Source of the DNA: an uncultured virus (IMG/VR IMGVR_UViG_3300006116_000009)
Lineage: Duplodnaviria > Heunggongvirae > Uroviricota > Caudoviricetes
Direction: 5' to 3' (one strand)
Length of the DNA: 20,000 bases
Virus record (IMG/VR): IMGVR_UViG_3300006116_000009
The position numbers were made by a program, and so were the translations under genes. Under the pieces are notes generated by a model. It was given only the letters and a program-made list of their open reading frames with translations, had not been told where the DNA came from and did not search any database. The stretch's first letter is position 1; every line of letters begins with the position of its first letter. This document shows, in pieces, positions 702 to 19,238 of the stretch.

Positions 702-781
702 CGTTATGGCTAACAACCCCACTCCAATCCCAAGCGTTCCTCGAATTAAGTATTAGTGAAATCTACTAGTAGCCTTATAGG

Positions 782-1264
782 GTGACCTGTATAGCCGCTT
801 GGAAAGACCGTAAGCAAGTGTGGATGGCTGGGGACGGTGGCGCATTTGACGACACCACGGTCATTATTTCGGCAGAACCAAAGGTTTGGAAATCCGATAC
901 AAGTTTGGTTGGCGTAGCCGGTTCGTTCCGAATAATGGACATTCTTCGGAAAAGCAATATTGGCGACCCGTACAAAATCCGTGATTTTCTTATTAGCAAG
1001 TCTAACGAAGCAATTTTCCCTACTGACTGGTCAGTGTTGGTAGCCAATAAAACGGGCATTTACGAAATAGGTTCCGATTTTGGCGTAGTGAAATCCGCCG
1101 AGAACTATGGGGCTACGGGGGCTAGCGCACAGTCAGCACTAAGCGCATTGTTTGTATTGGAACGTAAAGACGTGACACCACAGCAACGTATGGAATTAGT
1201 GATGAAAGCAACGGGCTACCACACCACAAACTCACGCCCACCTTTTACAGTTATTTCGCTATGA
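782..1264 (+). CDS. Ntn-hydrolase threonine peptidase, HslV/proteasome beta-subunit-like
   Basis: After Met removal: Thr1 (TCIAAW), Asp17 (MAGD) and Lys33 (EPKV) at the canonical proteasome spacing, plus GVAGS and YGATGAS in the GSG-equivalent position. TAGCCT -10 at 770-775 suggests a leaderless start. Confidence 0.8.
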   Translation: MTCIAAWKDRKQVWMAGDGGAFDDTTVIISAEPKVWKSDTSLVGVAGSFRIMDILRKSNIGDPYKIRDFLISKSNEAIFPTDWSVLVANKTGIYEIGSDFGVVKSAENYGATGASAQSALSALFVLERKDVTPQQRMELVMKATGYHTTNSRPPFTVISL

Positions 1265-1962
1265 AAGGCGTTTCTAACAACCCTGCTGGACGACCCGTTA
1301 CGTTGCCAAAAATCCCTTGCAAAAACTGCGGGCAAATATTTCAGCAAAAACAACACGACAGATTTTATTGTTCGTCTGCCTGTGGCAATGGCGGTAAATG
1401 GAGCCGATACCCCCACCCAAAAGGAATGACGGGGCATAAGCACACTGAAGAAAACAAAAAACTGTATGCCGAACACTCACGGCAAAGAATGGCAAATGAC
1501 AAAAAATTCAGGGAAAAGTCCATTACCGCAATGCGGAAAGGACGTGAGGAACAACTACGACTGGGCGGAAGTCCGACTAAGCATTTTACTAGGGGCAAGG
1601 GGGGGAAACGAGCCGACTTGAATAACCAATACTTTAGGTCATCTTGGGAAGCAAACTACGCAAGATGGTTAAATTATTTGATTGGTACGGGGGAAATAGA
1701 AAGTTGGCAATACGAACCAAAAACCTTTGAGTTTCCGACAGACGCAGGTGCAAAGTTTTACACGCCGGATTTCTTGGTGAAAAAAACAAACGAATATGAG
1801 TGGCACGAAGTCAAAGGGTGGCTTACGGAACAAGGCAAGGAAAAGTTAAAAAGATTTGCATTGTTCTACCCAAACGAAAAACTAATATTAATTGACCAAC
1901 AGGCGTATAGTGAAATAAAACTGCAAGCCAAAGAAACGCTGGAAAATTGGGAAAAAAAATGA
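1261..1962 (+). CDS. Probable free-standing homing endonuclease: Cys-rich region, NUMOD3-like motif and PD-(D/E)xK nuclease
   Basis: CKNC..YCSSAC, then GMTGHKHTEENKK (NUMOD3-like), then FRSSWEANYA..WQYEP..YTPDF..HEVKG. Visibly more A-rich than its neighbours, with ATGA overlaps on both sides. Confidence 0.75.
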   Translation: MKGVSNNPAGRPVTLPKIPCKNCGQIFQQKQHDRFYCSSACGNGGKWSRYPHPKGMTGHKHTEENKKLYAEHSRQRMANDKKFREKSITAMRKGREEQLRLGGSPTKHFTRGKGGKRADLNNQYFRSSWEANYARWLNYLIGTGEIESWQYEPKTFEFPTDAGAKFYTPDFLVKKTNEYEWHEVKGWLTEQGKEKLKRFALFYPNEKLILIDQQAYSEIKLQAKETLENWEKK

Positions 1963-2327
1963 AGTCTTACACGGTTACGTATGAATCCCGTCCTAACTTT
2001 GGAATAAACAAAGAAAGAACCGTACACCACATGGTTAGGGCAAAAATAACAAAAGAATGGCGAAAGGCGTTTTGCGAATTAGCACAAGCGGCGATGATTC
2101 CGCACATGGAGCAGGTCGAAATTATTATTCAGCCTTACGTTCTAAATGCAAGGTATCGGCAAGACGTTGCATTTGGGTGCGCACCTTTAGCAAAAGCGGC
2201 TATTGACGGATTGGTAGATGCTGGGATACTTATTGACGACCACGCCCAAATCGTGGTAAAATTGACTTTCCTTGCGCCGAAGTACGGCAAAGACGGTTTA
2301 TCGCTAACCATTGTTCAAGTCAAGTAG
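1959..2327 (+). CDS. rusA: RusA-like Holliday junction resolvase
   Basis: RQDVAFGCAPLAKAAIDGLVDAGILIDD matches the RusA D..K..D.L..AG...DD pattern. ATG 1959 overlaps the upstream TGA. Confidence 0.75.
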   Translation: MKSYTVTYESRPNFGINKERTVHHMVRAKITKEWRKAFCELAQAAMIPHMEQVEIIIQPYVLNARYRQDVAFGCAPLAKAAIDGLVDAGILIDDHAQIVVKLTFLAPKYGKDGLSLTIVQVK

Positions 2328-2399
2328 CACAAGGGTGTGACATAACACCACCCGACTTTGGAAACCCTACTATACTAAATCGGTACAAGGAGAAACACT

Positions 2400-2672
2400 A
2401 TGACCCCCAACGACGATTTCACTACCCCCCTCGACGCTCGCAAGGAAGTCGAAGCCGACTTTTCACCAGAAGTAGCATCGCTTCTTTCGCACATTCGTGA
2501 CATCTGCCGTGAAATGCGCAAGCACGAACAGCAAGTCATTGAATTGGGTCGTGAACGTCGCCAGACCGTCACCCGACTTCGTGAAAAGGGTGTCACGTGG
2601 CGCAAGATTGCGGAGTGGGCTGAAACCACCGACCAAGCCTTGTACAAGCACCACAACCGAGATACTAAGTAG
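2400..2672 (+). CDS. Small helix-turn-helix DNA-binding protein with N-terminal coiled coil
   Basis: LREKGVTWRKIAEWAETTDQALYKH is an HTH pattern. RBS AAGGAG is upstream. Confidence 0.75.
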   Translation: MTPNDDFTTPLDARKEVEADFSPEVASLLSHIRDICREMRKHEQQVIELGRERRQTVTRLREKGVTWRKIAEWAETTDQALYKHHNRDTK

Positions 2673-2682
2673 TTTTGCCGGT

Positions 2683-2730
2683 TATAGCAATTTCGCTATA
2701 CTTGACCTAGCAACTAAACTAGGGTATAAT
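2683..2730 (+). promoter_or_regulatory. Near-consensus promoter of the helicase gene with an adjacent inverted repeat
   Basis: TTGACC (2702-2707), 17 nt, TATAAT (2725-2730), ATG 8 nt later with no SD. TATAGC-N6-GCTATA lies at 2683-2700. Confidence 0.8.
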
Positions 2731-2738
2731 AGTGATGT

Positions 2739-5700
2739 ATGCCTAGTTACCCGTTACTTGCAAATGCCGTTCGTGCTTTAGCCAATCAAGATGATGGCGC
2801 AGTTCGACGTGACGGTGTTGGCTTCAACGGTGGGGATACCAAGTTTGGCAATCGCCTAGCCCAAGTACCAGACGAAGCGTGGTCGCCAGAAATGGCACTA
2901 GAAGCGTGGCAGATGCTGGGTAAGTACCGTGAGCAACTGCAACGGATAGGCATTGACTTTAGCAAAGTCCCTGAACCAATCGTGTCCGAAAAATCAAAGG
3001 CTATTGCACGTGGTGTTAAGGCAGTAGACATTAGAAACAATCACGTGGTGGTGTTTATCCCCTACGGTGAGCCACTGTACCCTAAAGTCCCCCTGACCGC
3101 AGTATGGAACCGTGACATCAAAGGCTGGGTCGTAGCAAAGGAAAAGTACGGCGCAGTATTGGGCTGGGCTGAAAAGAACAAAGTGCCGGTATCTGACCGT
3201 GCCAAAGAATTTCTAGGCAAAGTACCGCCAATAGAAAATGCCAAATGGAATGGTGAAGTAGTTTTAGAAAAAGGGCAACTTGTAATCAGGTTTGACTACA
3301 ACGTAGAAATCCTTGATTCCGTCCGTAGCCTAAGCCAACGTCATTACAACGCCGAAGACAAAACGTGGTCTACCCCAAAAGAAAACGTAATGGCAGTCAA
3401 GGAATTGGCAGCGAAGCACCAACTTTTCCTGACCGAAGATGTCAAGCGATTGCACGGCGAAGAAATCAAACCTTGCCCCAAGATTGGCGTGTTGCATGAC
3501 AAATTTGCCATCACCTTCAACTACCAATCAAACATGGTCAGCGAAATTAGGCAGATGCCTGGGTCTGTGTGGTCACCAGACGAACGTGTTTGGGTTATCC
3601 CTGTAGAAAGTGTCCAAGAAGTAAGGGATTTCGTCACCAAGCACGAAGTTGAAATTTCCAAAGATGCGGAACTGTTGTTTATCGAAGCAGACACGGTGGC
3701 AGAAATTATCGAGTCATCACAGGCGCACGATGCCGACATTGACATCAAGGGGTTTGGTGACGAGCAGTACAAATTGTTCCCGTTCCAACGTGCCGGTGTT
3801 GCTTACGCTATGCAAGCAATGGGATACGAACACCACGAAGGCGAATGGAAGCAAAACACGCCAACCACTGGTGGCGTACTTGTAGGCGACGAAATGGGAT
3901 TAGGTAAGGCGCAGGTTCACGGAACAAAAGTTCTTACGCCTAAGGGCTGGACAAACATTGAGAACTTATCGGTTGGCGATGAGGTGATTGGGTCTAACGG
4001 ACACGCCACAAAAGTCACGGGAGTATTCCCTCGTGGCGAAATGGATGTGTTCACCGTTGGCTTCAATGACGGTTCAACCTTAGACGTATCGGGCGACCAC
4101 CTATGGGCAGTTCAGAGTGTCCAAAACGGATACCGTAAGCCCGACGAATGGCAAGTTAGAGATACTAACTACCTCGCAGAAAATCTCATAGACGGCGCTG
4201 GCAACTCAAAATGGAAAATCCCATTAGTTCAGCCTGTTTACTTTGAGGGCAACGAACCGCTACCAATTGACCCTTACCTTTTAGGAGTGCTGTTGGGTGA
4301 CGGTTGTTTAGGCGGTGCGAGCATAAGTGTCACATCAGCAGATGAATTTATTATTGAGGAAGTCAAAAAGCGTATACCTGAGGGTATGGGTATGACTAAG
4401 CACGGCGAATACGACTATCGCCTTGTATCACCAAGGGCAGGTCTGCCAAATGAACTAGGGCGCACGCTAAGTAAGTTGGGGCTTCGCCTAGGGTCTGGCG
4501 AAAAGTTTATTCCCGAAATGTACTTACGCTCAACGCCCGAAAACCGCCTTGCCCTGTTGCGTGGTCTAATGGACACTGACGGATTTGCCGGTAAAGACGG
4601 AACGAACGAGTTTGTAAGCATTAGTAAAGACCTTGCTGATGGGGTGACGGAGTTGGTTCAAAGTCTCGGCGGTGTAGTGCGCCGTAGCACTAAGCAACCT
4701 ACAAAAAACGGTGCTGATTACGGTCAGTTGGCGTATCGGGTAAATATAAAGTTGATGGACTGTCCATTCTTTATGCCACGCAAAGCAAATGATTGGGTCA
4801 AGCCAACCAAGTATCCACCTAACCGAAACATAAAGTCAATTACGCCCAATGGTCGTGGGCAGGTGACTTGTATTGCCGTGGAAGCACAAGACCACTTATA
4901 CGTCACAGAGCATTACCTAGTGACGCACAACACACCGCAGGGTCTAGCCATTGTCAAAGCGGCTAATGCTTTTCCAGCAGTCATAGTCGTCCCAGCCAGC
5001 CTGAAACTGAACTGGGAACGGGAAGCCAAGCGTTGGATAAAGGGCGTGAAGGTAGCCGTTCTAGGTGGCACTACGGGCGAAGTACCCGAAGCCGAAATCT
5101 ACGTCATCAACTACGACGTACTTACCCATTGGGTGGATAAATTTCCACATATCAAGGCATTGGTCTTGGACGAAAGCCACTACATCAAGAACGGGTCAGC
5201 ACAGCGTTCCAAAGCGTGTGTACGCCTGTCGGACAAGGTGGTCGAGGGTGGCATACGTGTCTGCCTATCAGGGACACCTATCGTCAATCAGCCCACGGAA
5301 ATCATCACCCAACTACGGGTTATCAACCGTCTAGATGAATTCGGTGGTGCGACTAAGTTTCGCAACACCTATGGTAGTGCTAGTGGTCGAAGCCTTGCCG
5401 CCCTGAACCGCAAACTACGTTCCACCTGTTACGTTCGTCGCCGGAAAGCCGACGTGCTAACTGAACTGCCCCCAAAGCGTTGGTCGCAAGTGTTCGTCGA
5501 AGGCAACGCCAAGGTGATGAAGGAATACCGTGAAGCGGAAGCAGACATTGTAAATTACCTAGCCGACCTAGCACGGGAAATTGCATTGGAATCGGGCGCA
5601 ACGGATAAAGAAGCACAAAACGAAGCGTGGCGCAAAGCACTAAAGGCTCGAGCCGCCGAACAGTTGGTTGCTATTTCCACCTTGAAGCAGTTAGCCGCCA

Positions 5701-6224
5701 AAGCCAAAATGGAAGCCGCCCGTGAATGGATTGACAACTTTGTAGATGGCGATAAGAAGTTGGTGGTGTTTGGTTGGCACCGTTCAGTCGTAAATGAAAT
5801 TGCCGACAACTTTAGCAACGGCGTGAAAATTCAAGGTGGGCTAACCCCCGAAAAGCGTCAAGAAGCCGTGGACGCATTCCAAAACGACGACAAACAAAAA
5901 GTGATTGCTTGCAATATCAAAGCCGCTGGGGTTGGACTTACGCTAACTGCCGCTAGTGATGTGTTGTTCCTCGAGCAAGGGTGGACACCAAGTGACATGG
6001 AACAAGCAGTAGACCGTTGCCACCGTATCGGTCAGCAAGACAGCGTGACTGGTTGGCTTATGTTGTGCGCTAACACCATTGACGAAGACATTGCCGTACT
6101 GATTGACAACAAGCGTTCTATCGTAGACCGTGCCATTGACGGGTCAAATGATGACGAAGAAGAAGCACGTTCTATTGTGGGCGACTTGTTGGTAAGTCTG
6201 GCAGAACGTGGACTAAATCGGTAA
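2739..6224 (+). CDS. SNF2-family (SMARCAL1/HARP-like) helicase/ATPase precursor containing an intein
   Basis: GDEMGLGK|intein|T Walker A, VVPASL, LVLDESH (DExH), LSGTP, GVGLTL and QAVDRCHRIGQ motifs. Three N-terminal F.Y...W....K.W repeats. Confidence 0.92.
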   Translation: MPSYPLLANAVRALANQDDGAVRRDGVGFNGGDTKFGNRLAQVPDEAWSPEMALEAWQMLGKYREQLQRIGIDFSKVPEPIVSEKSKAIARGVKAVDIRNNHVVVFIPYGEPLYPKVPLTAVWNRDIKGWVVAKEKYGAVLGWAEKNKVPVSDRAKEFLGKVPPIENAKWNGEVVLEKGQLVIRFDYNVEILDSVRSLSQRHYNAEDKTWSTPKENVMAVKELAAKHQLFLTEDVKRLHGEEIKPCPKIGVLHDKFAITFNYQSNMVSEIRQMPGSVWSPDERVWVIPVESVQEVRDFVTKHEVEISKDAELLFIEADTVAEIIESSQAHDADIDIKGFGDEQYKLFPFQRAGVAYAMQAMGYEHHEGEWKQNTPTTGGVLVGDEMGLGKAQVHGTKVLTPKGWTNIENLSVGDEVIGSNGHATKVTGVFPRGEMDVFTVGFNDGSTLDVSGDHLWAVQSVQNGYRKPDEWQVRDTNYLAENLIDGAGNSKWKIPLVQPVYFEGNEPLPIDPYLLGVLLGDGCLGGASISVTSADEFIIEEVKKRIPEGMGMTKHGEYDYRLVSPRAGLPNELGRTLSKLGLRLGSGEKFIPEMYLRSTPENRLALLRGLMDTDGFAGKDGTNEFVSISKDLADGVTELVQSLGGVVRRSTKQPTKNGADYGQLAYRVNIKLMDCPFFMPRKANDWVKPTKYPPNRNIKSITPNGRGQVTCIAVEAQDHLYVTEHYLVTHNTPQGLAIVKAANAFPAVIVVPASLKLNWEREAKRWIKGVKVAVLGGTTGEVPEAEIYVINYDVLTHWVDKFPHIKALVLDESHYIKNGSAQRSKACVRLSDKVVEGGIRVCLSGTPIVNQPTEIITQLRVINRLDEFGGATKFRNTYGSASGRSLAALNRKLRSTCYVRRRKADVLTELPPKRWSQVFVEGNAKVMKEYREAEADIVNYLADLAREIALESGATDKEAQNEAWRKALKARAAEQLVAISTLKQLAAKAKMEAAREWIDNFVDGDKKLVVFGWHRSVVNEIADNFSNGVKIQGGLTPEKRQEAVDAFQNDDKQKVIACNIKAAGVGLTLTAASDVLFLEQGWTPSDMEQAVDRCHRIGQQDSVTGWLMLCANTIDEDIAVLIDNKRSIVDRAIDGSNDDEEEARSIVGDLLVSLAERGLNR
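3909..4931 (+). mobile_element. Class 3 (Ala1, WCT) intein with LAGLIDADG homing endonuclease, 341 aa
   Basis: Starts AQVHGTKVLTPKGW, block B SGDHLW, LAGLIDADG motifs LLGVLLGDG and LLRGLMDTDG, block F VTCIAV, ends LVTHN/T. Removal restores GLGKT. Confidence 0.93.
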
Positions 6225-6449
6225 TTACTTACCGGAAATGCTTAGGGCGTAAGTCGTAGCCTGTTGCGCCCTAGCCTTTAGCAACGGGGCATCAGGACTA
6301 CCATTCGCCTGTGACACGGCAAGTCGTTTCCAAAGTTCGCTGGCATCAGCAAGGGCTTTAGCAATACGGGCGTACTGCGAAGAAGCGTATTCTTCACCCT
6401 CAAAACGGTCAGTCAGCAGGGCGCTGGTAGTGAAATCAGGCGTTGGCAA
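6225..6449 (-). CDS. Leader-family protein 1, 74 aa, Ala-rich helical
   Basis: TTG start with AGGAGG 5 nt upstream. N-terminus DFTTSALL. RFEGEEY resembles a degenerate PFEGNQY. Confidence 0.7.
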   Translation of the reverse strand: MPTPDFTTSALLTDRFEGEEYASSQYARIAKALADASELWKRLAVSQANGSPDAPLLKARAQQATTYALSISGK

Positions 6450-6852
6450 CGGAGCCTCCTGTGGTCACACCCGTCACGGGGGTCGAGTCGTTCATCACCA
6501 TAGCATTTGCCGATTGCGAAGCGTCAGCAGCAGCCTGAGTTGCCCCTCGAGCGTTCAGCCCGTCAGTTTTGGAATTCTCGGTTGCTGCGTGTTCGTGCAA
6601 GTCAGCAGCGTGGTTATTCATTTCGGCATACTTGGGGTTGGTCTTGGCAAATGCTTGCGCCACCTTACGGTGTTCCTCCGCCAATCGCAAGTGCGTTTCT
6701 TTCCTAGCCTTCATGTCTTGTTTGCTAGAAATGTTGTGGGCATCAGTAGCCAACAACGCCAACTTTTGCCCTTCAGCAGTGTGGCGTGGCAAGGCGTGGT
6801 TCTTTGGATACCGAGACTTACCCTTGAGTAATGCTTCGGTAGTGAAATCCAT
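6436..6852 (-). CDS. Leader-family protein 2, 138 aa, Ala/His-rich helical
   Basis: MDFTTEALLKGKSRYP, with HLRLAEEH..HAADLHEHAA. ATG overlaps the upstream stop. Confidence 0.8.
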   Translation of the reverse strand: MDFTTEALLKGKSRYPKNHALPRHTAEGQKLALLATDAHNISSKQDMKARKETHLRLAEEHRKVAQAFAKTNPKYAEMNNHAADLHEHAATENSKTDGLNARGATQAAADASQSANAMVMNDSTPVTGVTTGGSVANA

Positions 6853-7406
6853 TAGTACCCAGTGGCAAATAAGGCTTCGTTGTACCCTTGACGTGACATA
6901 ACAAACGCACGGTGGCTAGCAAGCCAAGCGTCCTTGATAGGGCTGTCCCAATCGGGAATACGAATGTTGTCACGGTCAGAATTGGAATTCTGGTGGCGAT
7001 TGTCAGTACTGAAATCCACAGCCTGTGGACTACCAGCGACGTTCTGCATACAAACCTTTGACGCTTGCAAGTGTGCGCCGTAAGCATCACCATGTGCCGA
7101 AACAGCCTTGACGTTGCTAGCAGGGTTGGCGTTCTTCATGTCTTGCGCAAGTTGGTAGTGGGCTTGCGCCAAGGCATTGTGTAGTTGCGCCATGCTGGTG
7201 TAGTCATCAGCACTAAGGGGGGCAGACTGACCAAAATGTGCCGATTCTTGTTGGTCGGAAATCAACCCAGCCTGACGGTACAAATCAGCGGAACGAAGGG
7301 CAAAAGGGTTGTTAGTAGCCATACCAGCAGGGGTAAACGAAGGTAGATAGTTGAAGTCACTGGAACCCTTTGTAATGTTTTCTGGTGAAAAACGGTTATT
7401 GTTCAC
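6852..7406 (-). CDS. Leader-family protein 3, 184 aa
   Basis: GTG with RBS GGAAGGA. Sequence RFSPENITKG, LHNALAQAH..AHGDAYGAH. Confidence 0.8.
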   Translation of the reverse strand: MNNNRFSPENITKGSSDFNYLPSFTPAGMATNNPFALRSADLYRQAGLISDQQESAHFGQSAPLSADDYTSMAQLHNALAQAHYQLAQDMKNANPASNVKAVSAHGDAYGAHLQASKVCMQNVAGSPQAVDFSTDNRHQNSNSDRDNIRIPDWDSPIKDAWLASHRAFVMSRQGYNEALFATGY

Positions 7407-7455
7407 GGATTTCCTTCCCTGCGTATCGCTACAAATCTACACCCACATTTAGAAA

Positions 7456-8298: not shown

Positions 8299-8747
8299 TA
8301 GTACTTCTTACTGCGATACGCCCCTACGCCACCAGCGCCAGCGTCAGGAATACCGTTTTCGTGGTCGTACTTTTCTGCTTCCCACGTTGCCTTAGCAGCC
8401 TTACGTGGCGTAAAGTGGGTCACTTTTTCAGCAGGGGTAGTCTTTCGCTCCCCAGCACCACCAGATGAAATAAAGTGTTCGAGAAATGCCTTGCGATGCA
8501 GTGCTTCACCAACTTTGTCGCCACGAACACGGGCTGCGACTTCGGCGGATTTGTGATGTGACAGCATGATGTCATGCTGACGTTCAAATTCGCCAGCCTG
8601 CTTAGCGTTAAAGTTCGGCATTGAGTCTTTGTCATCAGAAATACTTTGCGCCTTGTCAGTCCACTGATTTCCCTCAAATGGGTGACCGACCACAGCCCCC
8701 TTTGTCAAGGGATATAAAAGACCGTTGGTAGAAAAGTCATGCGTCAT
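8298..8747 (-). CDS. Leader-family protein 5, 149 aa
   Basis: MTHDFSTNGLLYPLTKGAVVGHPFEGNQW, QHDIMLSHH..LHRKAFLEH. Leaderless -10 lies 6 nt upstream. Confidence 0.82.
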   Translation of the reverse strand: MTHDFSTNGLLYPLTKGAVVGHPFEGNQWTDKAQSISDDKDSMPNFNAKQAGEFERQHDIMLSHHKSAEVAARVRGDKVGEALHRKAFLEHFISSGGAGERKTTPAEKVTHFTPRKAAKATWEAEKYDHENGIPDAGAGGVGAYRSKKY

Positions 8748-8753
8748 AAAACA

Positions 8754-8795: not shown

Positions 8796-8802
8796 GGGCG
8801 GT

Positions 8803-9891: not shown

Positions 9892-9907
9892 CTGTAGGGT
9901 AGTAGTT

Positions 9908-11110: not shown

Positions 11111-11158
11111 ACCGCAAAACCCGTTGTAGCATTTAGTGAATCTAAAGGAGCAAACCCT

Positions 11159-12331: not shown

Positions 12332-12333
12332 TC

Positions 12334-12546
12334 GTGTGGTCTTGGGTTCTTAGCCTATTAGGTATCCTTTGCACGGTACTTATTGGTAAAAAGTATTGGT
12401 GGGCGTGGTTGATTTCTAACTGCGTGAACGTCCTTTGGATTATCTTTTCCATCACCACCAAGCAGTATGGTTTCTTGCTAACCAGCGTTGTGTATGCCGT
12501 GTTGTATTGGAACAACATGGTGAAATGGCGTAACGGAAAAGATTAG
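12334..12546 (+). CDS. Small three-TM membrane protein resembling the half-size PnuC-like nicotinamide riboside transporters of actinophages
   Basis: WSWVLSLLG..GKKYWWAWLI..VLWIIFSITTKQYGFL..Y..W, with three hydrophobic segments in 70 aa. Confidence 0.6.
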   Translation: MWSWVLSLLGILCTVLIGKKYWWAWLISNCVNVLWIIFSITTKQYGFLLTSVVYAVLYWNNMVKWRNGKD

Positions 12547-12552
12547 GAACCC

Positions 12553-12580
12553 TTGACATTGTTCTAATCCCGTCTAACGT
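12553..12580 (+). promoter_or_regulatory. Putative leaderless promoter
   Basis: TTGACA (12553-12558), 16 nt, TAACGT (12575-12580), GTG 5 nt later. Confidence 0.55.
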
Positions 12581-12585
12581 TAGGC

Positions 12586-13005
12586 GTGTCACTCAAAGAC
12601 CCAGATAAGCGTCGTGAATATGACCGACAGCGCAAGCGTGAACTACGGGAAAAAGACCGTGATGCGTTCAACCAAAGCCAGCGTGAATACTACGCCGACA
12701 ATAGTGACCGCATAAAAGAACAAGTCACCAAGCGTCGCAAAGCCAATCGTGCAAGGATACGCAAGTATCTGAACGAGGTGAAATCTAAAGAATGTTCGGA
12801 CTGCGGATTTGTGTATCCGCCCCACTGCATGGACTTTGACCACCTAAGCGATAAGCATTTCAACGTAAGCGAAGCCGCTTCGGGCAACTATTCGCTAGAA
12901 ACCATCAAGGCAGAAGTAGCCAAGTGTGAAGTGGTGTGTTCCAACTGTCACCGTGAACGCACCCACCAACGTCGAAATAAAAAGAAACACCCACCGGCTG
13001 CTTGA
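12586..13005 (+). CDS. HNH endonuclease with basic helical N-terminus
   Basis: CSDC..MDFDH..KHFNVS..EVAKCEVVCSNCHRERT. Confidence 0.88.
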   Translation: MSLKDPDKRREYDRQRKRELREKDRDAFNQSQREYYADNSDRIKEQVTKRRKANRARIRKYLNEVKSKECSDCGFVYPPHCMDFDHLSDKHFNVSEAASGNYSLETIKAEVAKCEVVCSNCHRERTHQRRNKKKHPPAA

Positions 13006-13030
13006 TTTCATTATCTAACCCTGATACAGT
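13002..13030 (+). promoter_or_regulatory. Putative leaderless promoter
   Basis: TTGATT (13002-13007), 17 nt, TACAGT (13025-13030) with TG extension, GTG 13038 7 nt later. Confidence 0.6.
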
Positions 13031-13037
13031 AGCGATT

Positions 13038-13424
13038 GTGCAAGAACCCGGATACCCAGACGAAGCGACTATTGCTTCTATCCAACACCAAGCGGAAAAA
13101 CTAGGGTATCTAGTTGCACAGGTAGAAACCTTGTTTGACCAGCGTGTTCGTTGGGAACGCCACCGTGAAACAGTGCGCCATTCCACCAAGTCCACTGGCG
13201 ACCTTAGCGAATGGATGACGGCACAGATTTCGTCCGAGGAACTAGCCGAACGTGCCGCTGTGTTGTTACAGGAAACGTCGGATAAGTACGACCACATCAA
13301 GGCGAACTACCAGCACAACATCAACACCCTGAACCAAATGGTGTTAGACAGCATCAACCGTGGCAAGTCGCAAGCCAATGAACTAGATGAAACCCTTAGT
13401 GAAATACTGAAAGAAGGCAAATAA
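13038..13424 (+). CDS. Hypothetical coiled-coil protein
   Basis: ORF 13002..13424. Start moved to GTG 13038 on promoter geometry. Confidence 0.7.
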   Translation: MQEPGYPDEATIASIQHQAEKLGYLVAQVETLFDQRVRWERHRETVRHSTKSTGDLSEWMTAQISSEELAERAAVLLQETSDKYDHIKANYQHNINTLNQMVLDSINRGKSQANELDETLSEILKEGK

Positions 13425-13888
13425 TGTCAAGCGAATTCCCACACAACAAGTGGAGCGAACACAACAAGTGGAGCGACCCAAAGAAGTACCCCCACAACGG
13501 TTGGTATCCCGAACCCACGATTACTGACCTGTACAGCGCAATCAACGGGCTGAAGAAGCAAGTCGAAGTCCTTGTTGAGCAAAACCGTGACACTTTGAAC
13601 TTGTTAATGGAAATTGTCGGTGGCGAAGAAGAAAACGAAGAAATTGGCATTGTCGAAGTGGTGTTGGTAGAAAACGGCTACGACATTGCTGAGGAAGAAA
13701 GTGGTTGCGGTGAAAACTGCAAGTGCAAGCCACAGTTCCCATTGGGCGGAGAAACCCCCCTCGACGATGTTTGCATTTGGTTGGAACAGCAAATTGACAT
13801 CTGGGGTCGCAACGACGAAACCCGTGCAGTTGGCTACCAGCACACCTTGGAACACATCAAGCGCCTACAAAAGTACATTGGCGAATAG
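13424..13888 (+). CDS. Hypothetical acidic protein with short coiled coil and CGENCKC cluster
   Basis: ATG overlaps the upstream TAA and has RBS GAAGG. 154 aa. Confidence 0.75.
   Translation: MSSEFPHNKWSEHNKWSDPKKYPHNGWYPEPTITDLYSAINGLKKQVEVLVEQNRDTLNLLMEIVGGEEENEEIGIVEVVLVENGYDIAEEESGCGENCKCKPQFPLGGETPLDDVCIWLEQQIDIWGRNDETRAVGYQHTLEHIKRLQKYIGE
13441..13476 (+). repeat. Perfect in-frame 18-bp tandem duplication
   Basis: ACACAACAAGTGGAGCGA x2, encoding HNKWSE-HNKWSD. Confidence 0.9.
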
Positions 13889-13934
13889 TTGCCATGTCAC
13901 GGGTCATTGGGTACGGCATTTGTTCTAAGTGCCA

Positions 13935-13958
13935 CCAGTCAATTCAATTACTGACTGG
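13935..13958. terminator. Possible intergenic hairpin or terminator
   Basis: CCAGTCA-N10-TGACTGG in the gap between genes. No U-tract. Confidence 0.3.
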
Positions 13959-14039
13959 CGAAACTGATTACGTTCACCAAACCCCTGACATAACCCACGA
14001 ACCCACACTAAAAATGTGGGACAACGATTGGATTGTGTA

Positions 14040-14609
14040 GTGAAATCAAACACCTTTGGCGTTCCAATTATTGGCATTACCGGATATGCGCAAAGTGGCA
14101 AAAGTACATTGGGCGAACTGATTGTTCACCACAACGGGGCGCACCACGCCAACTTTGCCGATTTGATGCGTGACTTTCTGTACGCCATAAACCCACTAGT
14201 CACCCCCAAGTCACGTGTTCAAGACCTTGTAGACCACCTTGGTTGGGAACGGGCAAAAGTGGGATACCCCGAAGTACGCCAACTAATGCAACGTCTTGGC
14301 ACTGACGCTGGACGCAAACTGTTTGGTGAAACCTTTTGGGTAGACCAATTCTTTGCCAACGTGGGCAAGACAGACCTTCTGGTTATTTCTGACGTGCGAT
14401 TTCCAAACGAAGCGCAAGCCATCAAAGACCGTGGTGGAATCATCGTGCGCATTGTCCGTGACGGCTACGAACCTGTGAACGCACACGTTAGCGAAACGTC
14501 ATACAACGACCAAGATTTCACTATTTACAACGACGCAAAACCTGATGACTTGTACGTGTTTTTTCGCAACGCATTTGCTACATACTTGACAAACACCACT
14601 AAACCGTGA
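14040..14609 (+). CDS. Deoxynucleoside monophosphate kinase (T4 gp1-like family)
   Basis: IIGITGYAQSGKST P-loop, FAD, RQLMQRLGT..GR, ISDVRFPNE, HVSE. Start uncertain (GTG 14016 or 14040). Confidence 0.88.
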   Translation: MKSNTFGVPIIGITGYAQSGKSTLGELIVHHNGAHHANFADLMRDFLYAINPLVTPKSRVQDLVDHLGWERAKVGYPEVRQLMQRLGTDAGRKLFGETFWVDQFFANVGKTDLLVISDVRFPNEAQAIKDRGGIIVRIVRDGYEPVNAHVSETSYNDQDFTIYNDAKPDDLYVFFRNAFATYLTNTTKP

Positions 14610-14615
14610 TACGGT
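14586..14615 (+). promoter_or_regulatory. Putative promoter for the secreted protein
   Basis: TTGACA (14586-14591), 18 nt, TACGGT (14610-14615) with TG extension, followed by RBS AAAGGAAAG. Confidence 0.6.
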
Positions 14616-14644
14616 TAGTCATTACCCAACCAAAGGAAAGACAA

Positions 14645-15082
14645 ATGATTAGCAAGACCAAGAAGTTCGCATTAGCAATTGCTATTGCGTCCGTTGTATT
14701 ACCCGTTCTACCGGCAAGTGCTAGCACGTCAAGCAAGTATTACTCGTGGAAGCGTGCCACGTTGCCCATTATTTCTAAGACGGTAAACGATTACTCGTCC
14801 TTGACCATTGACCTTACGAACGGCAACGCTAGTAGCGCATCGGCAGACCTGACCACACTGGGCAACGACGCACGGGCAATTAACAACCACGCCAACTCGC
14901 CCGACTACACCCTGAACCTCAAGGTGAACAACCTTGCCATTGCGTTGGCAAACCTTGCGTCGGTTGGTCAGACCACCCTGAACGGTGGCTCGCTTGGACC
15001 GTGGCGCAACGCCCTTGTTCGATGGAACAACGCCGAGACTGCGTTCACCAACCGTTTGTCATACGACAACAACCGCTGGTAA
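14645..15082 (+). CDS. Secreted helical protein with Sec signal peptide
   Basis: MISKTKKFALAIAIASVVLPVLPASA/ST has n, h and c regions with an AxA site. ATG 14645 has a strong RBS. Confidence 0.8.
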   Translation: MISKTKKFALAIAIASVVLPVLPASASTSSKYYSWKRATLPIISKTVNDYSSLTIDLTNGNASSASADLTTLGNDARAINNHANSPDYTLNLKVNNLAIALANLASVGQTTLNGGSLGPWRNALVRWNNAETAFTNRLSYDNNRW

Positions 15083-15085
15083 AAA

Positions 15086-15322
15086 GTGTCCATCTGGGCG
15101 GTGGTAGCAGTATCTTTGCTATCAGGTATCTGCATAGGTATCGGCGTTAGTATCACTTTTCTTCAGAAAAAATCTAACGAATACGCTAAAATGTTCCCAC
15201 CGCCCGGTTGGGATAGTCGTGCTAAGAAGTGCCACGACGTGACCCTTGTAGCAAGTGGCGGATTACTCCACCACACCACTTGCTGGTGTCACGAAAGGCG
15301 CAAACATGAAAACACTGATTGA
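15086..15322 (+). CDS. Small single-TM protein with C-terminal Cys/His cluster
   Basis: Hydrophobic residues 3-26, then KCHD..HHTTCWCH. Confidence 0.7.
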   Translation: MSIWAVVAVSLLSGICIGIGVSITFLQKKSNEYAKMFPPPGWDSRAKKCHDVTLVASGGLLHHTTCWCHERRKHENTD

Positions 15323-15458
15323 AGCACTAAAGAAGAAGCGAAACGACAGTTGGTTCTTTTCACCACGTGACCAACGTTGCGTTCGTTGCGGTTACATCCA
15401 ACTTGACCACCACTTTTCCCCCTGTGCTTGCCACAAATTTAAGGGATACGCTGGCTAA
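15306..15458 (+). CDS. Small Zn-finger-like protein, 50 aa
   Basis: RBS GAAAGG and ATG 15306. Sequence CVRCG..DHH..CACHKF. Confidence 0.65.
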   Translation: MKTLIEALKKKRNDSWFFSPRDQRCVRCGYIQLDHHFSPCACHKFKGYAG

Positions 15459-15500
15459 ATAGCCACCCCTTGCCTCACCAACCCTGCTAGAGTTATTGGC

Positions 15501-15656
15501 ATGGTAAACACCACCCACAGGCAGTCGCTACTGACTGAACTAGCAAAACTTAGGGTAAAACTTTCTGCCCTGAACTACGAAGTCGCTGAACTAAAAGCAG
15601 AAAACGAAAAGTTGCGTTCGCAGTTAGTGGGGGGCAACAATGCTACTCAAGGGTAA
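15501..15656 (+). CDS. Small coiled-coil protein, 51 aa (below the ORF-track cutoff)
   Basis: MVNTTHRQSLLTELAKLRVKLSALNYEVAELKAENEKLRSQLVGGNNATQG has heptad periodicity. TG-C-TAGAGT -10 (15488-15493) lies 7 nt before the ATG. Confidence 0.7.
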   Translation: MVNTTHRQSLLTELAKLRVKLSALNYEVAELKAENEKLRSQLVGGNNATQG

Positions 15657-17436
15657 TTGCTTAGACCTACTGAAAACGTTGCCTGATAACAGCGTGGACA
15701 GCATCGTTACCGACCCCCCATATGGATTGGAATTCATGGGGCGTGATTGGGATGCCCCATGGAAGCAAAGTGAAGTGGTGGAAGTCACTGACAAAGCCAC
15801 CAACGGGATATTTCACGACAAAGGGTTCAAGAACGGCATCCGTTATTCCCGTGGAACACAGGAAATGGTTGCGTTCCAATTGTGGTTTACTGAAATCGCT
15901 GAGGAGTGTTTCCGTGTCTTGAAACCAGGCGGTCACATTTTGTCGTTCGGCGGTTCACGGACGTACCACCGCATGGCGGTAGCGATTGAGGACGCTGGTT
16001 TCGAGATTAGGGACAGCATCCACTGGACATACGGTTCGGGATTCCCCAAGTCAATGGACATTAGCAAAGCCATTGACAAGCAGGGTGGTGAAAACATTGG
16101 GTGGTTCATTGACCTTTGCCTAAAGGTGGCAGAGGAAAAGGGGATTACCAAGAAACAATTAACCGATTTGTTTCCGTCAAAGAACGGCAAGCCAACGGGC
16201 TGGCTTTACAACAAGGCTTCACACACCCAATCCATTTCACCAGAACAATTTAATGTTTTGCGTGATTTTCTTGATTTGCCATACGCCGACTTAGCAGAAG
16301 CCGAGCGTGAAGTAGTGGGCTACAAAGAAGCCGGTATGGGGTCTGGTGAAACATTTGGTATGCGCCAAGCAGAAGGCGACAATGCTAGCGCCAACAAAAC
16401 CGTTCCAATCACCGCACCCGCCACCCCCGAAGCCCAACGCTGGCAAGGCTGGGGAACGGCTATGAAGCCTAGCCACGAACCTATTGTGGTGGCACGAAAG
16501 CCCGTTGAAGGCACGGTAGCCAACAACGTACTGAAATACGGCACAGGGGCTATCAACATCGACGGCACACGAGTTGGGACGACCAAAGAAGTACCGGGTA
16601 CGGCAAACAGCAAAGGCGAAACGTCAGGCTACATGAAAGGTTGGGGCGACCACACCGATGAAATGTCGGGCAAGAACCCGAACATGGGTCGGTGGCCCGC
16701 AAACACCATACTTACACACTCGTCAGCCTGTCGCCAAGTAGGAGAAACTAGCGAAACCGTAGTCACTACCAACGGCAAGGGATTTGCCGGTTCGTTTGAG
16801 GGTGGTGAAAACAACAACGGCGGTGCAGAAACTAAGGTATCCACGCCTATTTGGGAGTGTGCCGACGATTGCCCGACCAAGTTGTTCCCCGAAAGCAACG
16901 GCGGTGCGTTTCCCAAGAAGGGCAATACGCCAACGGGGGAACACTACGAAGGTGGTTGGAAGTCCGTAGACAACGGTGTACGTACTGAAATGGGTTCCGG
17001 TTCAGCATCACGGTTCTTTAATCAGACCGAATACGACGATGACATGGACTTTCCACCAATTATCTACCAAGCAAAGGCAAGTAAGGCAGACCGCAACGCT
17101 GGACTGAATTGGGTACGCCCCGAAGAAGGTATGGGGTCGTACAACTTCCGTGTCAATGGTTCGTTAGATGGCAAGCAAACCGCCCCGAAGCAAAACATTC
17201 ACCCCACCGTGAAGCCAGTTGCCCTTATGCGCCACCTAATTCGCCTCGTAACGCCACCGAACGGCGTAGTGCTAGACCCGTTCTTGGGTTCCGGTACAAC
17301 GGCTGTAGCCGCCATTTTGGAAAACTGCCAATGGATAGGTTGTGAAATGACCGAGGACTACTACGACATAATCGAAAAGCGTGTGGAATGGGCTATGTAC
17401 CAAGCCAATGCACCTAAGCAAGAAAGCCTGTTCTAA
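15640..17436 (+). CDS. Beta-class amino-DNA methyltransferase (N6A/N4C family) with internal HTH-like insertion
   Basis: IVTDPPY near the N-terminus, RVLKPGG, HEPI, HPTVKP, and VLDPFLGSGTT near the C-terminus. Confidence 0.92.
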   Translation: MLLKGNCLDLLKTLPDNSVDSIVTDPPYGLEFMGRDWDAPWKQSEVVEVTDKATNGIFHDKGFKNGIRYSRGTQEMVAFQLWFTEIAEECFRVLKPGGHILSFGGSRTYHRMAVAIEDAGFEIRDSIHWTYGSGFPKSMDISKAIDKQGGENIGWFIDLCLKVAEEKGITKKQLTDLFPSKNGKPTGWLYNKASHTQSISPEQFNVLRDFLDLPYADLAEAEREVVGYKEAGMGSGETFGMRQAEGDNASANKTVPITAPATPEAQRWQGWGTAMKPSHEPIVVARKPVEGTVANNVLKYGTGAINIDGTRVGTTKEVPGTANSKGETSGYMKGWGDHTDEMSGKNPNMGRWPANTILTHSSACRQVGETSETVVTTNGKGFAGSFEGGENNNGGAETKVSTPIWECADDCPTKLFPESNGGAFPKKGNTPTGEHYEGGWKSVDNGVRTEMGSGSASRFFNQTEYDDDMDFPPIIYQAKASKADRNAGLNWVRPEEGMGSYNFRVNGSLDGKQTAPKQNIHPTVKPVALMRHLIRLVTPPNGVVLDPFLGSGTTAVAAILENCQWIGCEMTEDYYDIIEKRVEWAMYQANAPKQESLF

Positions 17437-18683
17437 TGCTTCTAAAAGGCAACTGCCTCGAAACCCTAAAGACCCTGCCAGACAATTCCATTGACAGCGT
17501 GGTGACCGACCCTCCCTATGAATATGGCTTTATGGGGAAATCGTGGGACAATTCTGGCATTGCCTACAACCAAGACCTGTGGCGTGAGTGCCTACGTGTC
17601 CTGAAGCCAGGTGGACACCTGCTCGCCTTCTCCGGCTCTCGCACTTACCACCGAATGACCGTCGCCATCGAGGACGCTGGCTTCGAGATTAGGGACCAGA
17701 TTATGTGGCTCTACGGCTCGGGGTTCCCGAAATCGTATAACGTCGCCAAAGGCATTGAGGGAACTCTGCTGAACGGGTCTGCGTCGTGGAACGACTTTCA
17801 CAAACTCAATGGTGAAATCCGTGAGGTCAAGGGTGCGACAGGCAACCTAACCGCTGCGAACGCTGAACACGGAAACCGCCCAACGAACTATCAGTCGCAC
17901 GGCTCGCTTGATTTGGAACCGACCACCGACGAGGCTAAGAAGTGGATGGGCTGGGGAACAGCCCTAAAGCCAGCCCACGAACCCATCTGTGTCGCTCGCA
18001 AACCCCTGACCGGCACAGTGGCCTCGAACGTGCTGGAGTGGGGAACGGGTGCGCTGAACATTGACGCAACACGAGTGGGAACCTCTGGCGAAAACTTTGA
18101 CAACCTAAAGGGTCGCCCTATCGCAAAGTTATCTACTCGCCGTGATGGTGAAACCGACGAGGAATACAACGCTCGGATATTGGAAAGCCCCGAACAGCAA
18201 AAGGCGTTAGCCAAACTCAAACAACTTGGTCGCTGGCCTGCCAACGTAATCCACGACGGAAGCGAGGAAGTGCTGGCTGGGTTCCCGAACGACGCAGGCC
18301 GCTTCTTCTACTGCGCTAAGGCAAGCAAGTCCGAGCGCAACGCAGGGCTGGAGGGGTTGCCGGAACAAATGCTAACTGGGCGTGACGAGGGGCAAGACGC
18401 TATGCAAGTGCCGTACAAGACCCGTTCCAAAGTCACCGCCAACATCCACCCGACGGTCAAGCCATTGGCACTTATGCGTTATCTGGTGAAAATGGTCACA
18501 CCATCAGGCGGCACAGTCCTCGACCCGTTCCTCGGTAGCGGTTCTACTGCTGTTGCTGCAATCCTTGAGGGTTTTGAGTGGGTGGGTTGTGAAATGACAG
18601 AAGATTACTGGCACATCATCGAGGCACGGGTAGATTGGGCGCACAAACAAGCATTGGAAGCGAAACAAGAAAGGTTGTTCTAG
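17436..18683 (+). CDS. Second beta-class amino-DNA methyltransferase, paralog of the upstream gene
   Basis: VVTDPPY, RVLKPGG, HEPI, HPTVKP, VLDPFLGSGST. N- and C-termini nearly match the upstream enzyme. Confidence 0.92.
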   Translation: MLLKGNCLETLKTLPDNSIDSVVTDPPYEYGFMGKSWDNSGIAYNQDLWRECLRVLKPGGHLLAFSGSRTYHRMTVAIEDAGFEIRDQIMWLYGSGFPKSYNVAKGIEGTLLNGSASWNDFHKLNGEIREVKGATGNLTAANAEHGNRPTNYQSHGSLDLEPTTDEAKKWMGWGTALKPAHEPICVARKPLTGTVASNVLEWGTGALNIDATRVGTSGENFDNLKGRPIAKLSTRRDGETDEEYNARILESPEQQKALAKLKQLGRWPANVIHDGSEEVLAGFPNDAGRFFYCAKASKSERNAGLEGLPEQMLTGRDEGQDAMQVPYKTRSKVTANIHPTVKPLALMRYLVKMVTPSGGTVLDPFLGSGSTAVAAILEGFEWVGCEMTEDYWHIIEARVDWAHKQALEAKQERLF

Positions 18684-18961
18684 TGACAAAGTGTAAGAAC
18701 TGCCAGAAAACCATTGTTGCTGACACCATTTACGAGGGTGGTTGGGCGCACGAAACACCCGTTCCGCACCACGACGCAGACATTTGCCACGAAATCTTGA
18801 CCGCCGAACCGGAATTGGAAACATCTATTGCCATAGATTTCACCGCAGACGAACTACAAGGCATGGCACAGGCTATGCGTATTACCGGCGACACATTCAG
18901 TACGTTCATTGACCGTGCAATCAAAAACACCATTGAAAGGTACGAAAATGGGAGGCCCTAG
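18683..18961 (+). CDS. Hypothetical protein with N-terminal CxxC/His region and possible C-terminal ribbon-helix-helix
   Basis: GTG overlaps TAG. Sequence CKNC..WAH..CH, then TSIAIDFTADELQGMAQAM..GDTFSTFIDRAI. Confidence 0.65.
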   Translation: MTKCKNCQKTIVADTIYEGGWAHETPVPHHDADICHEILTAEPELETSIAIDFTADELQGMAQAMRITGDTFSTFIDRAIKNTIERYENGRP

Positions 18962-19238
18962 AAAGTGCAACCGCTGTAATCAAGACGTATTGGCACAAAA
19001 CCGTGCCGAAGAACTATTGTTAGAACTTATTTCCGAACGGGTACTAAAGCATAAGCCACCATCACAGGGCGACCTCGAGGCTGACGACAAGCGTATGACC
19101 GACCTTGGCTACCCACCTAGTGAAATAGAACTAGCACACCGTAAGGGCTACGACACGGGCTGGTGGGAGTGCTACGAAGTGTTGAGCAACCTCATTGACG
19201 CACACAACGATAACAACGAATACCGCAGGCAACGATGA
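18948..19238 (+). CDS. Hypothetical protein (CNRC, KGYDTGW)
   Basis: ATG 18948 with RBS GAAAGG, inside ORF 18909..19238. Confidence 0.7.
   Translation: MGGPRKCNRCNQDVLAQNRAEELLLELISERVLKHKPPSQGDLEADDKRMTDLGYPPSEIELAHRKGYDTGWWECYEVLSNLIDAHNDNNEYRRQR

Follow-up and report, generated by a model that had tools for sequence, protein, structure and literature searches.

The 20,000-nucleotide stretch of DNA analyzed here (hereafter, the window) comes from an uncultured virus of the class Caudoviricetes (IMG/VR record IMGVR_UViG_3300006116_000009) and, judging from family matches, is a phage replication and nucleotide-metabolism module. It encodes an HslV-like protein, a DUF1064/endonuclease-like protein, a RusA-like resolvase, a small helix-turn-helix (HTH) protein, an HNH endonuclease and a deoxynucleoside monophosphate (dNMP) kinase, along with an intein-bearing SNF2 helicase, a protein with two ParB-N-like domains and three tandem N6/N4 methyltransferases. 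The subject of this work is a short asymmetric word, TAGTGAAAT, that is repeated in these genes and in the gaps between them, as well as in the genomes of related phages.

The word occurs 15 times in the window, 12 times on the plus strand and 3 times on the minus strand (Table 1), whereas dinucleotide-preserving shuffles (n = 200) averaged 0.10 copies, had at most 2 and never reached 15. The first-pass annotation had reported this motif with an A/C tail, and all the coordinates and strands it listed are exact: the tenth base, following TAGTGAAAT, is C in 9 copies and A in 6, whereas the remaining flanks are unrelated. The form of the word in the window is the core TAGTGAAA, followed by T and then by C or A. 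The specificity is sharp, in that every AGTGAAAT in the window is preceded by T, and the single-mismatch neighbors of the word, with 0-4 copies each, are not raised.

The search of IMG/VR for relatives of the window yielded two fragments that are identical to it (L001 and L017), one that is 83-91% identical (L002) and one that is syntenic at ~70% identity (L018, that is, G002). Larger relatives were retrieved by a terminase search, among them G003 (113.7 kb, 91% complete) and G004 (108.7 kb). A megablast search of the window against the GenBank phages gave no match, and, among cultured phages, those of Arthrobacter encode the closest relatives of the ParB-like protein and the helicase, at ~40% identity. 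G003 and G004 each carry two WhiB genes that score above the Pfam cut-off, a family that is present only in Corynebacterium among 14 control genomes. The public runs in which the window is found carry the label of freshwater metagenomes (24 runs, with no RNA run listed among them); the contigs of four of them showed no usable variation at the sites. The family to which the window belongs probably consists of ~110 kb phages that infect Actinobacteria in fresh water, the host assignment being suggested by the WhiB genes and the distant similarity to Arthrobacter phages; the peptide deformylase of the phage, when compared to genome contigs, gave only three distant matches, none of them actinobacterial.

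The first-pass annotation placed the signal at the level of DNA, a claim that it staked beforehand on the enrichment outlasting a codon- or dicodon-preserving null, and the enrichment does persist under both. As that annotation had noted, the copies are read in different ways: 6 in the sense orientation as S-E-I, 2 as V-V-K and 3 in antisense as D-F-T, with the remaining 4 located outside gene calls. The 11 copies inside open reading frames (ORFs) compare with 0.65 expected when synonymous codons are shuffled within genes, 0.37 when they are pooled and 0.13 when the codon order is shuffled, with 11 reached in none of the 500 shuffles of each kind. The codon-pair null is a first-order model fitted on the same genes, so that it contains the signal itself and is, hence, conservative; nevertheless, it predicts only 0.69 sense and 0.13 antisense copies in the window, compared to the 8 and 3 present. 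The disparity recurs in the relatives: for TAGTGAAA in G004, 50 sense copies vs 5.2 predicted and 32 antisense copies vs 3.8; in G003, 12 vs 0.60 and 17 vs 1.03; and for CAGTGAAAT in G002, 9 vs 0.73 and 9 vs 1.13.

How far this pressure goes can be gauged from compatible places, that is, positions where the choice among synonymous codons would let the encoded protein keep the word. In the curated genes of the window, the word fills 11 of the 17 such places, whereas six control words fill none of 20 (with greedy gene calls). In G004, TAGTGAAA fills 50/93 sense and 32/116 antisense places, TGCTGAAA 60/121 and 35/108, and TGGTGAAA 43/91 and 24/106, with control words at 0-13%; the corresponding fractions are 9/15 and 9/13 for CAGTGAAAT in G002, and 12/29 and 16/29 for TAGTGAAAT in G003. 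The absence of the word from the helicase and methyltransferase genes, which had been pointed out previously and holds, has a simple cause: the helicase gene offers a single compatible place, which is unused, and the methyltransferase genes offer none. The word is a property of the DNA duplex, and selection or drive writes it into genes and gaps alike, and in both orientations, wherever the encoded proteins allow.

Comparison of orthologous sites shows the direction of this pressure. The check in relatives that had been proposed along with the motif was informative: in L002, 7 of the 8 alignable sites are exact despite varying flanks, and the eighth is TGGTGAAAT. At 8027, the sole difference within the word is a synonymous one, GCT in the window vs GCC in G002, which yields T-AGTGAAAT and C-AGTGAAAT, respectively, the own word of each lineage; at 1086, 6840 and 2416, G002 has TGGTGAAAT, its other word. 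Elsewhere, the protein itself is altered. The site at 10471 encodes T-S-E-I in the window, T-G-E-I (with TGGTGAAAT) in L002, T-K-E-I or T-K-E-V in G004 and G002, and N-K-E-L in G003 and G005; that at 13397 encodes L-S-E-I compared to L-N-E-I in G002; and that at 19118 encodes P-S-E-I compared to P-T-E-I in G002. The replacements that create the word at orthologous places are, then, K to S or G, N to S and T to S. In these alignments, synonymous and amino acid changes both follow the own word of each lineage.

When lineage-enriched words are scored against synonymous shuffles, TAGTGAAA is the enriched word in the window, L002, G007 and G003; CAGTGAAA and TGGTGAAA in G002; TAGTGAAA, TGCTGAAA and TGGTGAAA in G004; TGCTGAAA in G006 and G008; TGGTAGAA in G010; and, weakly, GGTAAAAA or GCTAAAAA in G005. 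By this sequence criterion, other lineages use "dialects" of the word, such as CAGTGAAAT, TGCTGAAA and TGGTGAAA. The window itself probably has a second word, TGGTGAAA, with 18 copies (13 plus, 5 minus), 16 of these within genes vs 2.5 under the synonymous shuffle (16 was reached in 0 of 500); TGGTGAAA and the TAG words swap at orthologous places.

The word is spread over entire genomes. There are 35 copies of TAGTGAAAT in G003 (19 plus, 16 minus), 54 in G004 (36 plus, 18 minus), 13 in G007 and 26 in the 14.7 kb of L216, but none in G006 and G008, and the 8-mer AGTGAAAT occurs once in G005. All 5-kb bins of G003 and G004 hold sites, including those with structural genes. Counted as the 8-mer TAGTGAAA, there are 100 copies in G004 (66 plus, 34 minus), and 25 plus and 23 minus in G003. 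Among the coding sites, the sense and antisense copies number 17 and 24 in G003, 154 and 91 in G004 (three words, 245 of the 280 sites being coding), 36 and 31 in G002, and 11 and 9 in L216. Orientation is tied neither to transcription nor to a simple polarity. The closeness of many copies to gene boundaries, which had also been noticed, is real in the window, where 9 of the 15 lie between genes or no more than 50 nt from an ORF end (3.27 expected; 11 of 5000 random draws reached 9), but does not extend to the family: there, sites are 0.6-2.4 times as dense between genes as within them, and their spacing to the next start codon shows no preference, so the bias is a local feature of the window only.

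Outside the family, no comparable word was detected in ~90 other phage loci of at least 15 kb, where high counts reflect tandem or collagen-like repeats. A scan of the collection for two copies of the word 39-69 nt apart gave 80 loci with DNA among the matches listed; 57 of these held just two copies, and only L216, a member of the family, was word-dense at a comparable G+C content, the other multi-copy loci listed being low-GC. Among the loci sampled, the word is restricted to the family.

The sites also exclude each other. The 280 sites of the three NNN-TGAAA words in G004 include a single adjacent pair less than 40 bp apart vs 27 expected, and 34 pairs less than 100 bp apart vs 63 expected, with 0 of 2000 simulations as extreme in either case. 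With the local density kept, the ratio of observed to expected is 0.00 at 0-20 bp, 0.06 at 20-40 bp, 0.58-0.95 at 40-100 bp and 1.04-1.31 beyond 100 bp; G002 has no pair closer than 60 bp vs 7 expected. The effect is equally apparent when the usage of compatible places is binned by the distance to the nearest other site (9-39 nt, 40-99 nt and at least 100 nt): 2/52, 45/158 and 197/423 places are used in G004 (three words), 0/12, 6/25 and 62/142 in G002 (two words), and 0/11, 11/20 and 96/280 in the pooled TAG lineages, totaling 2/75, 62/203 and 355/845. Since one word also excludes another, the several words of a genome are functional equivalents. The window contains one exception, at 13397, where TACTGAAA directly adjoins TAGTGAAA. 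In G004, G006 and G008 (L184-L189 and L197-L204), further words, TTTGGAAA / GTTTTGGA and TGCTGATG, exceed synonymous shuffles 5-8 fold on both strands; in G004, TTTGGAAA and TGCTGATG show no exclusion (8 pairs vs 6.1 expected below 40 bp) and are probably a different phenomenon.

The interpretation that we tentatively favor is that TAGTGAAAT is the version, in this lineage, of a family-wide recognition word NNN-TGAAA(T), the docking site for a single co-evolving factor that organizes the whole chromosome. Each word would be bound by one sequence-specific DNA-binding or DNA-processing factor. The exclusion within ~40 bp would reflect a factor footprint of tens of base pairs: the bound factor would occupy or serve such a segment, and a second site nearby would add nothing. 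Each copy would serve ~40-100 bp, and the copy number would be pushed towards the maximum that the proteins tolerate. The factor would co-evolve with the word, the identity of which would drift between lineages. The array of sites would regulate no single genes and instead would mark or organize the entire phage chromosome, for example by coating it, by providing a platform for compaction or loading, or by tagging it as 'self'. Given the one-base dialects among close relatives and the restriction of the word to the family among the loci sampled, a phage-encoded reader seems more likely than a host-encoded one. The proposal of the first-pass annotation that the motif is a genome-wide protein-binding site thus stands insofar as a genome-wide recognition site at the DNA level is concerned, borne out by the codon nulls and the ~110 kb relatives; its more specific versions, stoperator-like and parS-like sites, do not, whereas the recombination or packaging cue that it also named is possible.

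Several observations weigh against this interpretation. No reader was found among the HTH protein, the methyltransferases, the ParB-like protein, the small terminase subunit (TerS), the replication initiator and the genes that differ in presence or absence. The HTH protein and the double ParB-like protein were the readers originally put forward. The former has orthologues at 67-80% identity, and its HTH part hardly varies among TAG-word, CAG-word and no-word genomes, which makes it unlikely as the specificity reader. The gene for the latter is present in 6/6 relatives that cover its region, but each half of the protein matches only the N-terminal domain of the solved ParB, Noc and Spo0J (E-values from 3e-6 to 1.5e-3), no DNA-binding HTH part was matched by sequence, and the position of the CTP-binding box, GERRxR in ParB, is occupied by GTHTWK and GNHTAA; a role as the reader, accordingly, gains no support. 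The N6/N4 methyltransferase family PF01555 has 0 matches in the word-bearing G003 (91% complete) and G002, other classes not having been searched. The identity of TerS fails to match the dialect. The replication initiator has a modular make-up, G003 sharing only the N-terminal part with G004, and L216/G013 and G005 only the C-terminal part, and therefore does not track the TAG word. Comparison of the gene content of word-positive and word-negative genomes singled out only a 70-aa membrane-like protein and structural genes. A Pfam search with 25 large or conserved unknown proteins gave no polymerase, primase or DNA-binding candidate, and a sequence search of the ORF 13002-13424 against solved structures returned nothing below E 0.03. 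Furthermore, a host-encoded reader is possible, the exclusion zone could also arise from the cost of nearby nicks, and the relatives are all metagenome contigs, representing about eight independent lineages, with genes called as greedy longest ORFs and not by a trained gene finder.

Another scheme places the word within self recognition: a phage-encoded machine would read an 8-9-bp 'self' word, written hundreds of times in co-evolving dialects, such that replication, protection or packaging could tell the own DNA of the phage from that of the host or of competing relatives. We consider this possible but doubtful.

A Chi-like function, in which a host end-processing helicase-nuclease of the RecBCD, AddAB or AdnAB type reads the word, which would halt degradation of the phage DNA or initiate recombination on it as in the Chi-rich lambdoid phages, and the dialects reflect different hosts, is unlikely. 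Excerpts of the published accounts describe the phages LLS, MD8 and P1 as rich in the Chi octamer of the host (PMC12315714, PMC3784561), with 23 Chi sites in LLS, one per 1.86 kb and 20 of them in one orientation, and 50 in P1 (PMC12315714); in the excerpted part of the lambdoid survey, the Chi-rich phages are those that lack Rec modules and anti-RecBCD functions (PMC12315714). On the excerpted descriptions, the likeness is considerable: an asymmetric word of 8-9 nt in 30-150 fold excess here and an octamer enriched at least 25-fold there, with about one site per 2 kb in the Chi-rich phages, as well as regions without Chi that are thought to have been acquired recently. The 12:3 strand bias in the window, along with the fact that the 5 copies within the left 7 kb of G002 are all on the other (minus) strand, fits a polar signal, and the several similar words of G004 could represent degenerate recognition. 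The polarity reading, Chi- or KOPS-like, had to be dropped, however, when whole genomes were considered, the orientation bias being absent in G003 and weak in G004, whereas Chi, so far as these excerpts go, is the host's word, is strongly one-oriented and is clustered towards the DNA end. Moreover, the phage sites repel one another whereas Chi sites cluster in Chi-rich phages; the family has Rec genes of its own, namely, RusA-like (in the window), Sak4-like (AAA_24) and exonuclease genes, with a Mu Gam-like gene in G002; and the word changes by one base between close relatives.

Quite unlikely, too, is the possibility that the word is the site of a phage-encoded sequence-specific nickase or cleavage enzyme, with close nicks avoided because they would break the duplex. 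A short asymmetric word with an exclusion of ~40 bp irrespective of the strand would suit such an enzyme, and HNH and PD-(D/E)XK-like endonucleases are encoded in the window and its relatives. Phages T5 and LUZ24-like phages have localized single-strand interruptions, which are few and all on one strand; here, there are 50-280 sites on both strands, and there is no evident reason to saturate a genome with nicks.

It is improbable that an enzyme that modifies DNA, be it a methyltransferase or one acting in thymidine or other hypermodification, has the word as its target. The three tandem methyltransferases of the beta class in the window, with their large inserts, the glutamine amidotransferase, amidoligase, glycosyltransferases and dNMP kinase of the relatives, and the several words per genome, which resemble several enzyme specificities, are in line with such a role. 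Yet PF01555 is missing in G003, which has 35 copies of the word, and in G002; enrichment is not usual for modification targets, an 8-9-mer occurs too seldom for genome protection, and the exclusion zone would be left without an explanation.

Decidedly improbable are the two mechanisms named in the first-pass annotation, stoperator-like sites for an immunity repressor and dispersed parS-like sites loaded by the double ParB-like protein. Stoperators measure 13-14 bp and number 20-35 per genome; most of them occupy short gaps between genes, their orientation goes with the direction of transcription, and their reader is the immunity repressor of a temperate phage, whereas parS is a palindrome of ~16 bp and ParB has an HTH DNA-binding domain. 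The phage word is asymmetric and occurs in many copies (15 in 20 kb; 35-54 per relative genome), the ParB-like gene is conserved, and in the window the sites tend to lie at or near ORF boundaries. As stoperators, however, the sites are too short (8-10 bp) and mostly intragenic (11/15 in the window, 245/280 in G004), with an orientation independent of transcription; no repressor or integrase family is present among the window matches, although many ORFs have no family, and G004 yielded one weak integrase-like match, to a 161-aa ORF. As parS sites, they are not palindromic and have no conserved partner within 30 nt (a downstream ACTA accompanies only 4/15), and the altered, N-terminal-only ParB halves described above would be a poor match. 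Still, excerpts of the work on Cluster A mycobacteriophages point to a parallel, in that the asymmetric, many-copy stoperator motif varies with its repressor among related phages (PMC9283540, PMC6550527).

Very improbable is an origin without any reader, in which the words are by-products of codon-pair preference or of mutation or repair (such as short-patch repair) that is biased by sequence context. Many of the words fit the codon pattern NNT-GAA-A, and TTTGGAAA and TGCTGATG, enriched in G004, G006 and G008 without an exclusion zone, may be such by-products; but for the words at issue the codon-pair null fails ~10-fold, antisense and intergenic copies are equally enriched, amino acid replacements create the word, one-mismatch neighbors are not raised, and a mutation bias would act regardless of whether a site already exists within 40 nt. 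Finally, a promoter or translation-start element of a phage-specific transcription system is barely conceivable: a start codon does follow 14-30 nt after the copies at 754, 9338, 9878 and 13397, three of which have the form TAGTGAAAT-N(0-3)-ACTA, but the intergenic density is only 0.6-2.4 times that in genes, antisense copies are common, the next gene is at no preferred distance or orientation (in G004, 19 sites point to a co-directional gene and 16 do not), and there is no second element within 30 nt.

Among the known systems closest to the docking word that we favor are the DNA uptake sequences (DUS) of Neisseriaceae and the uptake signal sequences (USS) of Pasteurellaceae, for which dialects are described in excerpts of the respective studies (PMC3630211, PMC1626085, PMC2397512). 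Like the phage word, these are asymmetric sequences, 9-12 nt long, found about once per kb in both orientations, in genes and in gaps, where they shape codons and amino acids, and the words of related lineages differ by one or two bases. Unlike the phage word, they belong to bacterial chromosomes and are read by the competence machinery, their excess being thought to stem from biased uptake and recombination; the phage word has a phage carrier, no known uptake step and mutual exclusion within ~40 bp, and no competence-type machinery is encoded in the parts of the family that were examined. The cyanobacterial highly iterated palindrome HIP1 (GCGATCGC), according to the excerpted account, is a hyper-abundant 8-mer, 15- to 300-fold over-represented, that is kept by selection and has no known function (PMC5861425), but it is a palindrome in a cellular genome, whereas the phage words are asymmetric and lineage-specific. 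In Microbacterium phages, the excerpted text reports repeated asymmetric motifs of actinophage genomes, namely, an 18-bp motif in Cluster EC, the start-associated and extended start-associated sequences (SAS/ESAS) in Cluster EF, and others (PMC7302621); unlike the word described here, these are 13-30 bp long, occur 5-12 times per genome only in short intergenic gaps, and have a fixed distance to the start codon and a single orientation (PMC7302621). Apart from the host Chi, no account of a comparable word in phages came up in the literature searched; the letters of the motif matched only primers and similar sequences.

The individual sites are listed in Table 1. Four of the 15 copies (754-768, 9338-9351, 9878-9891 and 19118-19133) have the extended form TAGTGAAAT-N(0-3)-ACTA, which makes a short inverted repeat TAGT...ACTA and has 0 matches in the shuffles; of these four, the three intergenic ones precede start codons by 14-30 nt. 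Only 2 of the 100 TAGTGAAA sites in G004 have the ACTA extension. Occurrences of TAGTGAAA-N(1-5)-ACTA in unrelated low-GC phage loci turned out to be homologous coding motifs (D-A-P-Y-S-E-M-T and H-P-S-E-I-G-L-D) and not an enrichment. The window additionally has an excess of CTCGAG, an XhoI-type palindrome, with 7 sites (14 over both strands vs 1.4 expected under a second-order Markov model).

Table 1. Word copies and selected genes in the window
Feature	Position	Strand	Context and relatives
TAGTGAAAT	754..762	+	intergenic, 28 nt 5' of the GTG of ORF 782-1264; extended form TAGTGAAATCTACTA
TAGTGAAAT	1086..1094	+	ORF 782-1264 (HslV-like), sense V-V-K; G002 has TGGTGAAAT
TAGTGAAAT	1908..1916	+	ORF 1261-1962 (DUF1064/endonuclease-like), sense S-E-I, 47 nt from ORF end
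TAGTGAAAT	2416..2424	-	antisense in HTH gene 2400-2672, D-F-T; G002 has TGGTGAAAT
TAGTGAAAT	6428..6436	+	between the convergent helicase gene and ORF 6436-6852; L002 exact
TAGTGAAAT	6840..6848	+	antisense, 5' end of ORF 6436-6852(-), D-F-T-T; L002 exact, G002 has TGGTGAAAT
TAGTGAAAT	8027..8035	-	sense in ORF 7456-8298(-), A-S-E-I; G002 GCC AGT, giving CAGTGAAAT, synonymous T>C
TAGTGAAAT	8856..8864	+	ORF 8782-9336, sense; L002 exact despite diverged upstream flank
TAGTGAAAT	9338..9346	+	intergenic, 14 nt 5' of the ATG at 9352; extended form TAGTGAAATAACTA
TAGTGAAAT	9878..9886	+	intergenic, 30 nt 5' of the ATG of the ParB-like gene; extended form TAGTGAAATAACTA
TAGTGAAAT	10471..10479	+	ParB-like gene, T-S-E-I; L002 TGGTGAAAT (T-G-E-I); K in G004, G002, G003 and G005
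TAGTGAAAT	13397..13405	+	ORF 13002-13424, L-S-E-I (relatives L-N-E-I); TACTGAAA adjoins directly 3'
TAGTGAAAT	14038..14046	+	5' end of dNMP kinase gene; the GTG of the word may be the start codon; G002 has CAGTGAAAT
TAGTGAAAT	14515..14523	-	antisense in dNMP kinase gene, D-F-T-I; L002 exact
TAGTGAAAT	19118..19126	+	ORF 18909-19238, P-S-E-I (G002 P-T-E-I, CACTGAAAT); extended form TAGTGAAATAGAACTA
TAGTGAAA then A	12151..12158	+	sole copy of the 8-mer without T at position 9
TGGTGAAA	starts 306, 1775, 7383, 11032, 12518, 14324, 16086, 16344, 16803, 17810, 18146, 18484, 19979	+	all 18 copies of both strands span 26..19986
TGGTGAAA	starts 26, 2461, 7701, 15358, 16235	-	
SNF2 helicase gene	2739..6224	+	intein with Hint and LAGLIDADG homing-endonuclease domains, ~residues 390-740
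dNMP kinase gene	14016..14609		
Three tandem beta-class N6/N4 methyltransferase paralogues	15640..20000	+	large central inserts; genes at 15640..18683 and 19284..end

Several other features of the window and the family deserve mention. The helicase orthologues of G002 and G004 (818-822 aa) are devoid of the intein. Contigs from the public runs are 5-20 times deeper on the segment 17343-18676 than on the rest of the window, which points to a domain shared with other abundant elements. The ends of G003 (L183:13160-13659 and L178:1-330) overlap by ~143 bp, so that the record closes into a circle even though it is listed as linear; the non-coding junction contains four copies of the word, one between G7 and C7 runs and another flanked by G7 and G9 runs. 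G003 (L178-L183) also has a second repeat, approximately GCGGGCCTGGTTC, in 12-15 copies, nearly all on one strand. The family encodes a set of modification-type genes, including a glutamine amidotransferase, an amidoligase, glycosyltransferases, dCMP deaminase-like and nucleoside 2-deoxyribosyltransferase-like proteins and a dNMP kinase (L097:373-6705, L189:4710-6571, L184:1208-5301 and the kinase gene of the window), which suggests hypermodified DNA bases. The large terminase subunit is split into two adjacent ORFs, for the N-terminal and C-terminal parts, in G002 (L096:17419-19004) and G004 (L189:1981-3568). Among the 125 ORFs of G004 (L184-L189), no DNA polymerase or primase was recognized by PHROGs or Pfam; several ORFs of 1000-2400 aa have no family, and there is a Dps/ferritin-like protein at L185:5208-5666.

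Hyper-abundant words are known from bacterial chromosomes, in the form of uptake sequences, Chi, the FtsK-orienting polar sequences (KOPS) and HIP1, and in phages mainly as borrowed host Chi. In the phages analyzed here, such a word fixes the codon choice at ~40-65% of the compatible places, replaces amino acids, takes a lineage-specific form and keeps an exclusion zone of ~40 bp. In practical terms, it would lend itself readily to the assignment of metagenomic contigs to phage lineages if its reader is phage-encoded, and it provides an experimental handle that consists of one short oligonucleotide and its one-base variant (TAGTGAAATC vs CAGTGAAATC). If the reader is encoded by the phage, the word would represent a new way for a virus to label or organize its chromosome.

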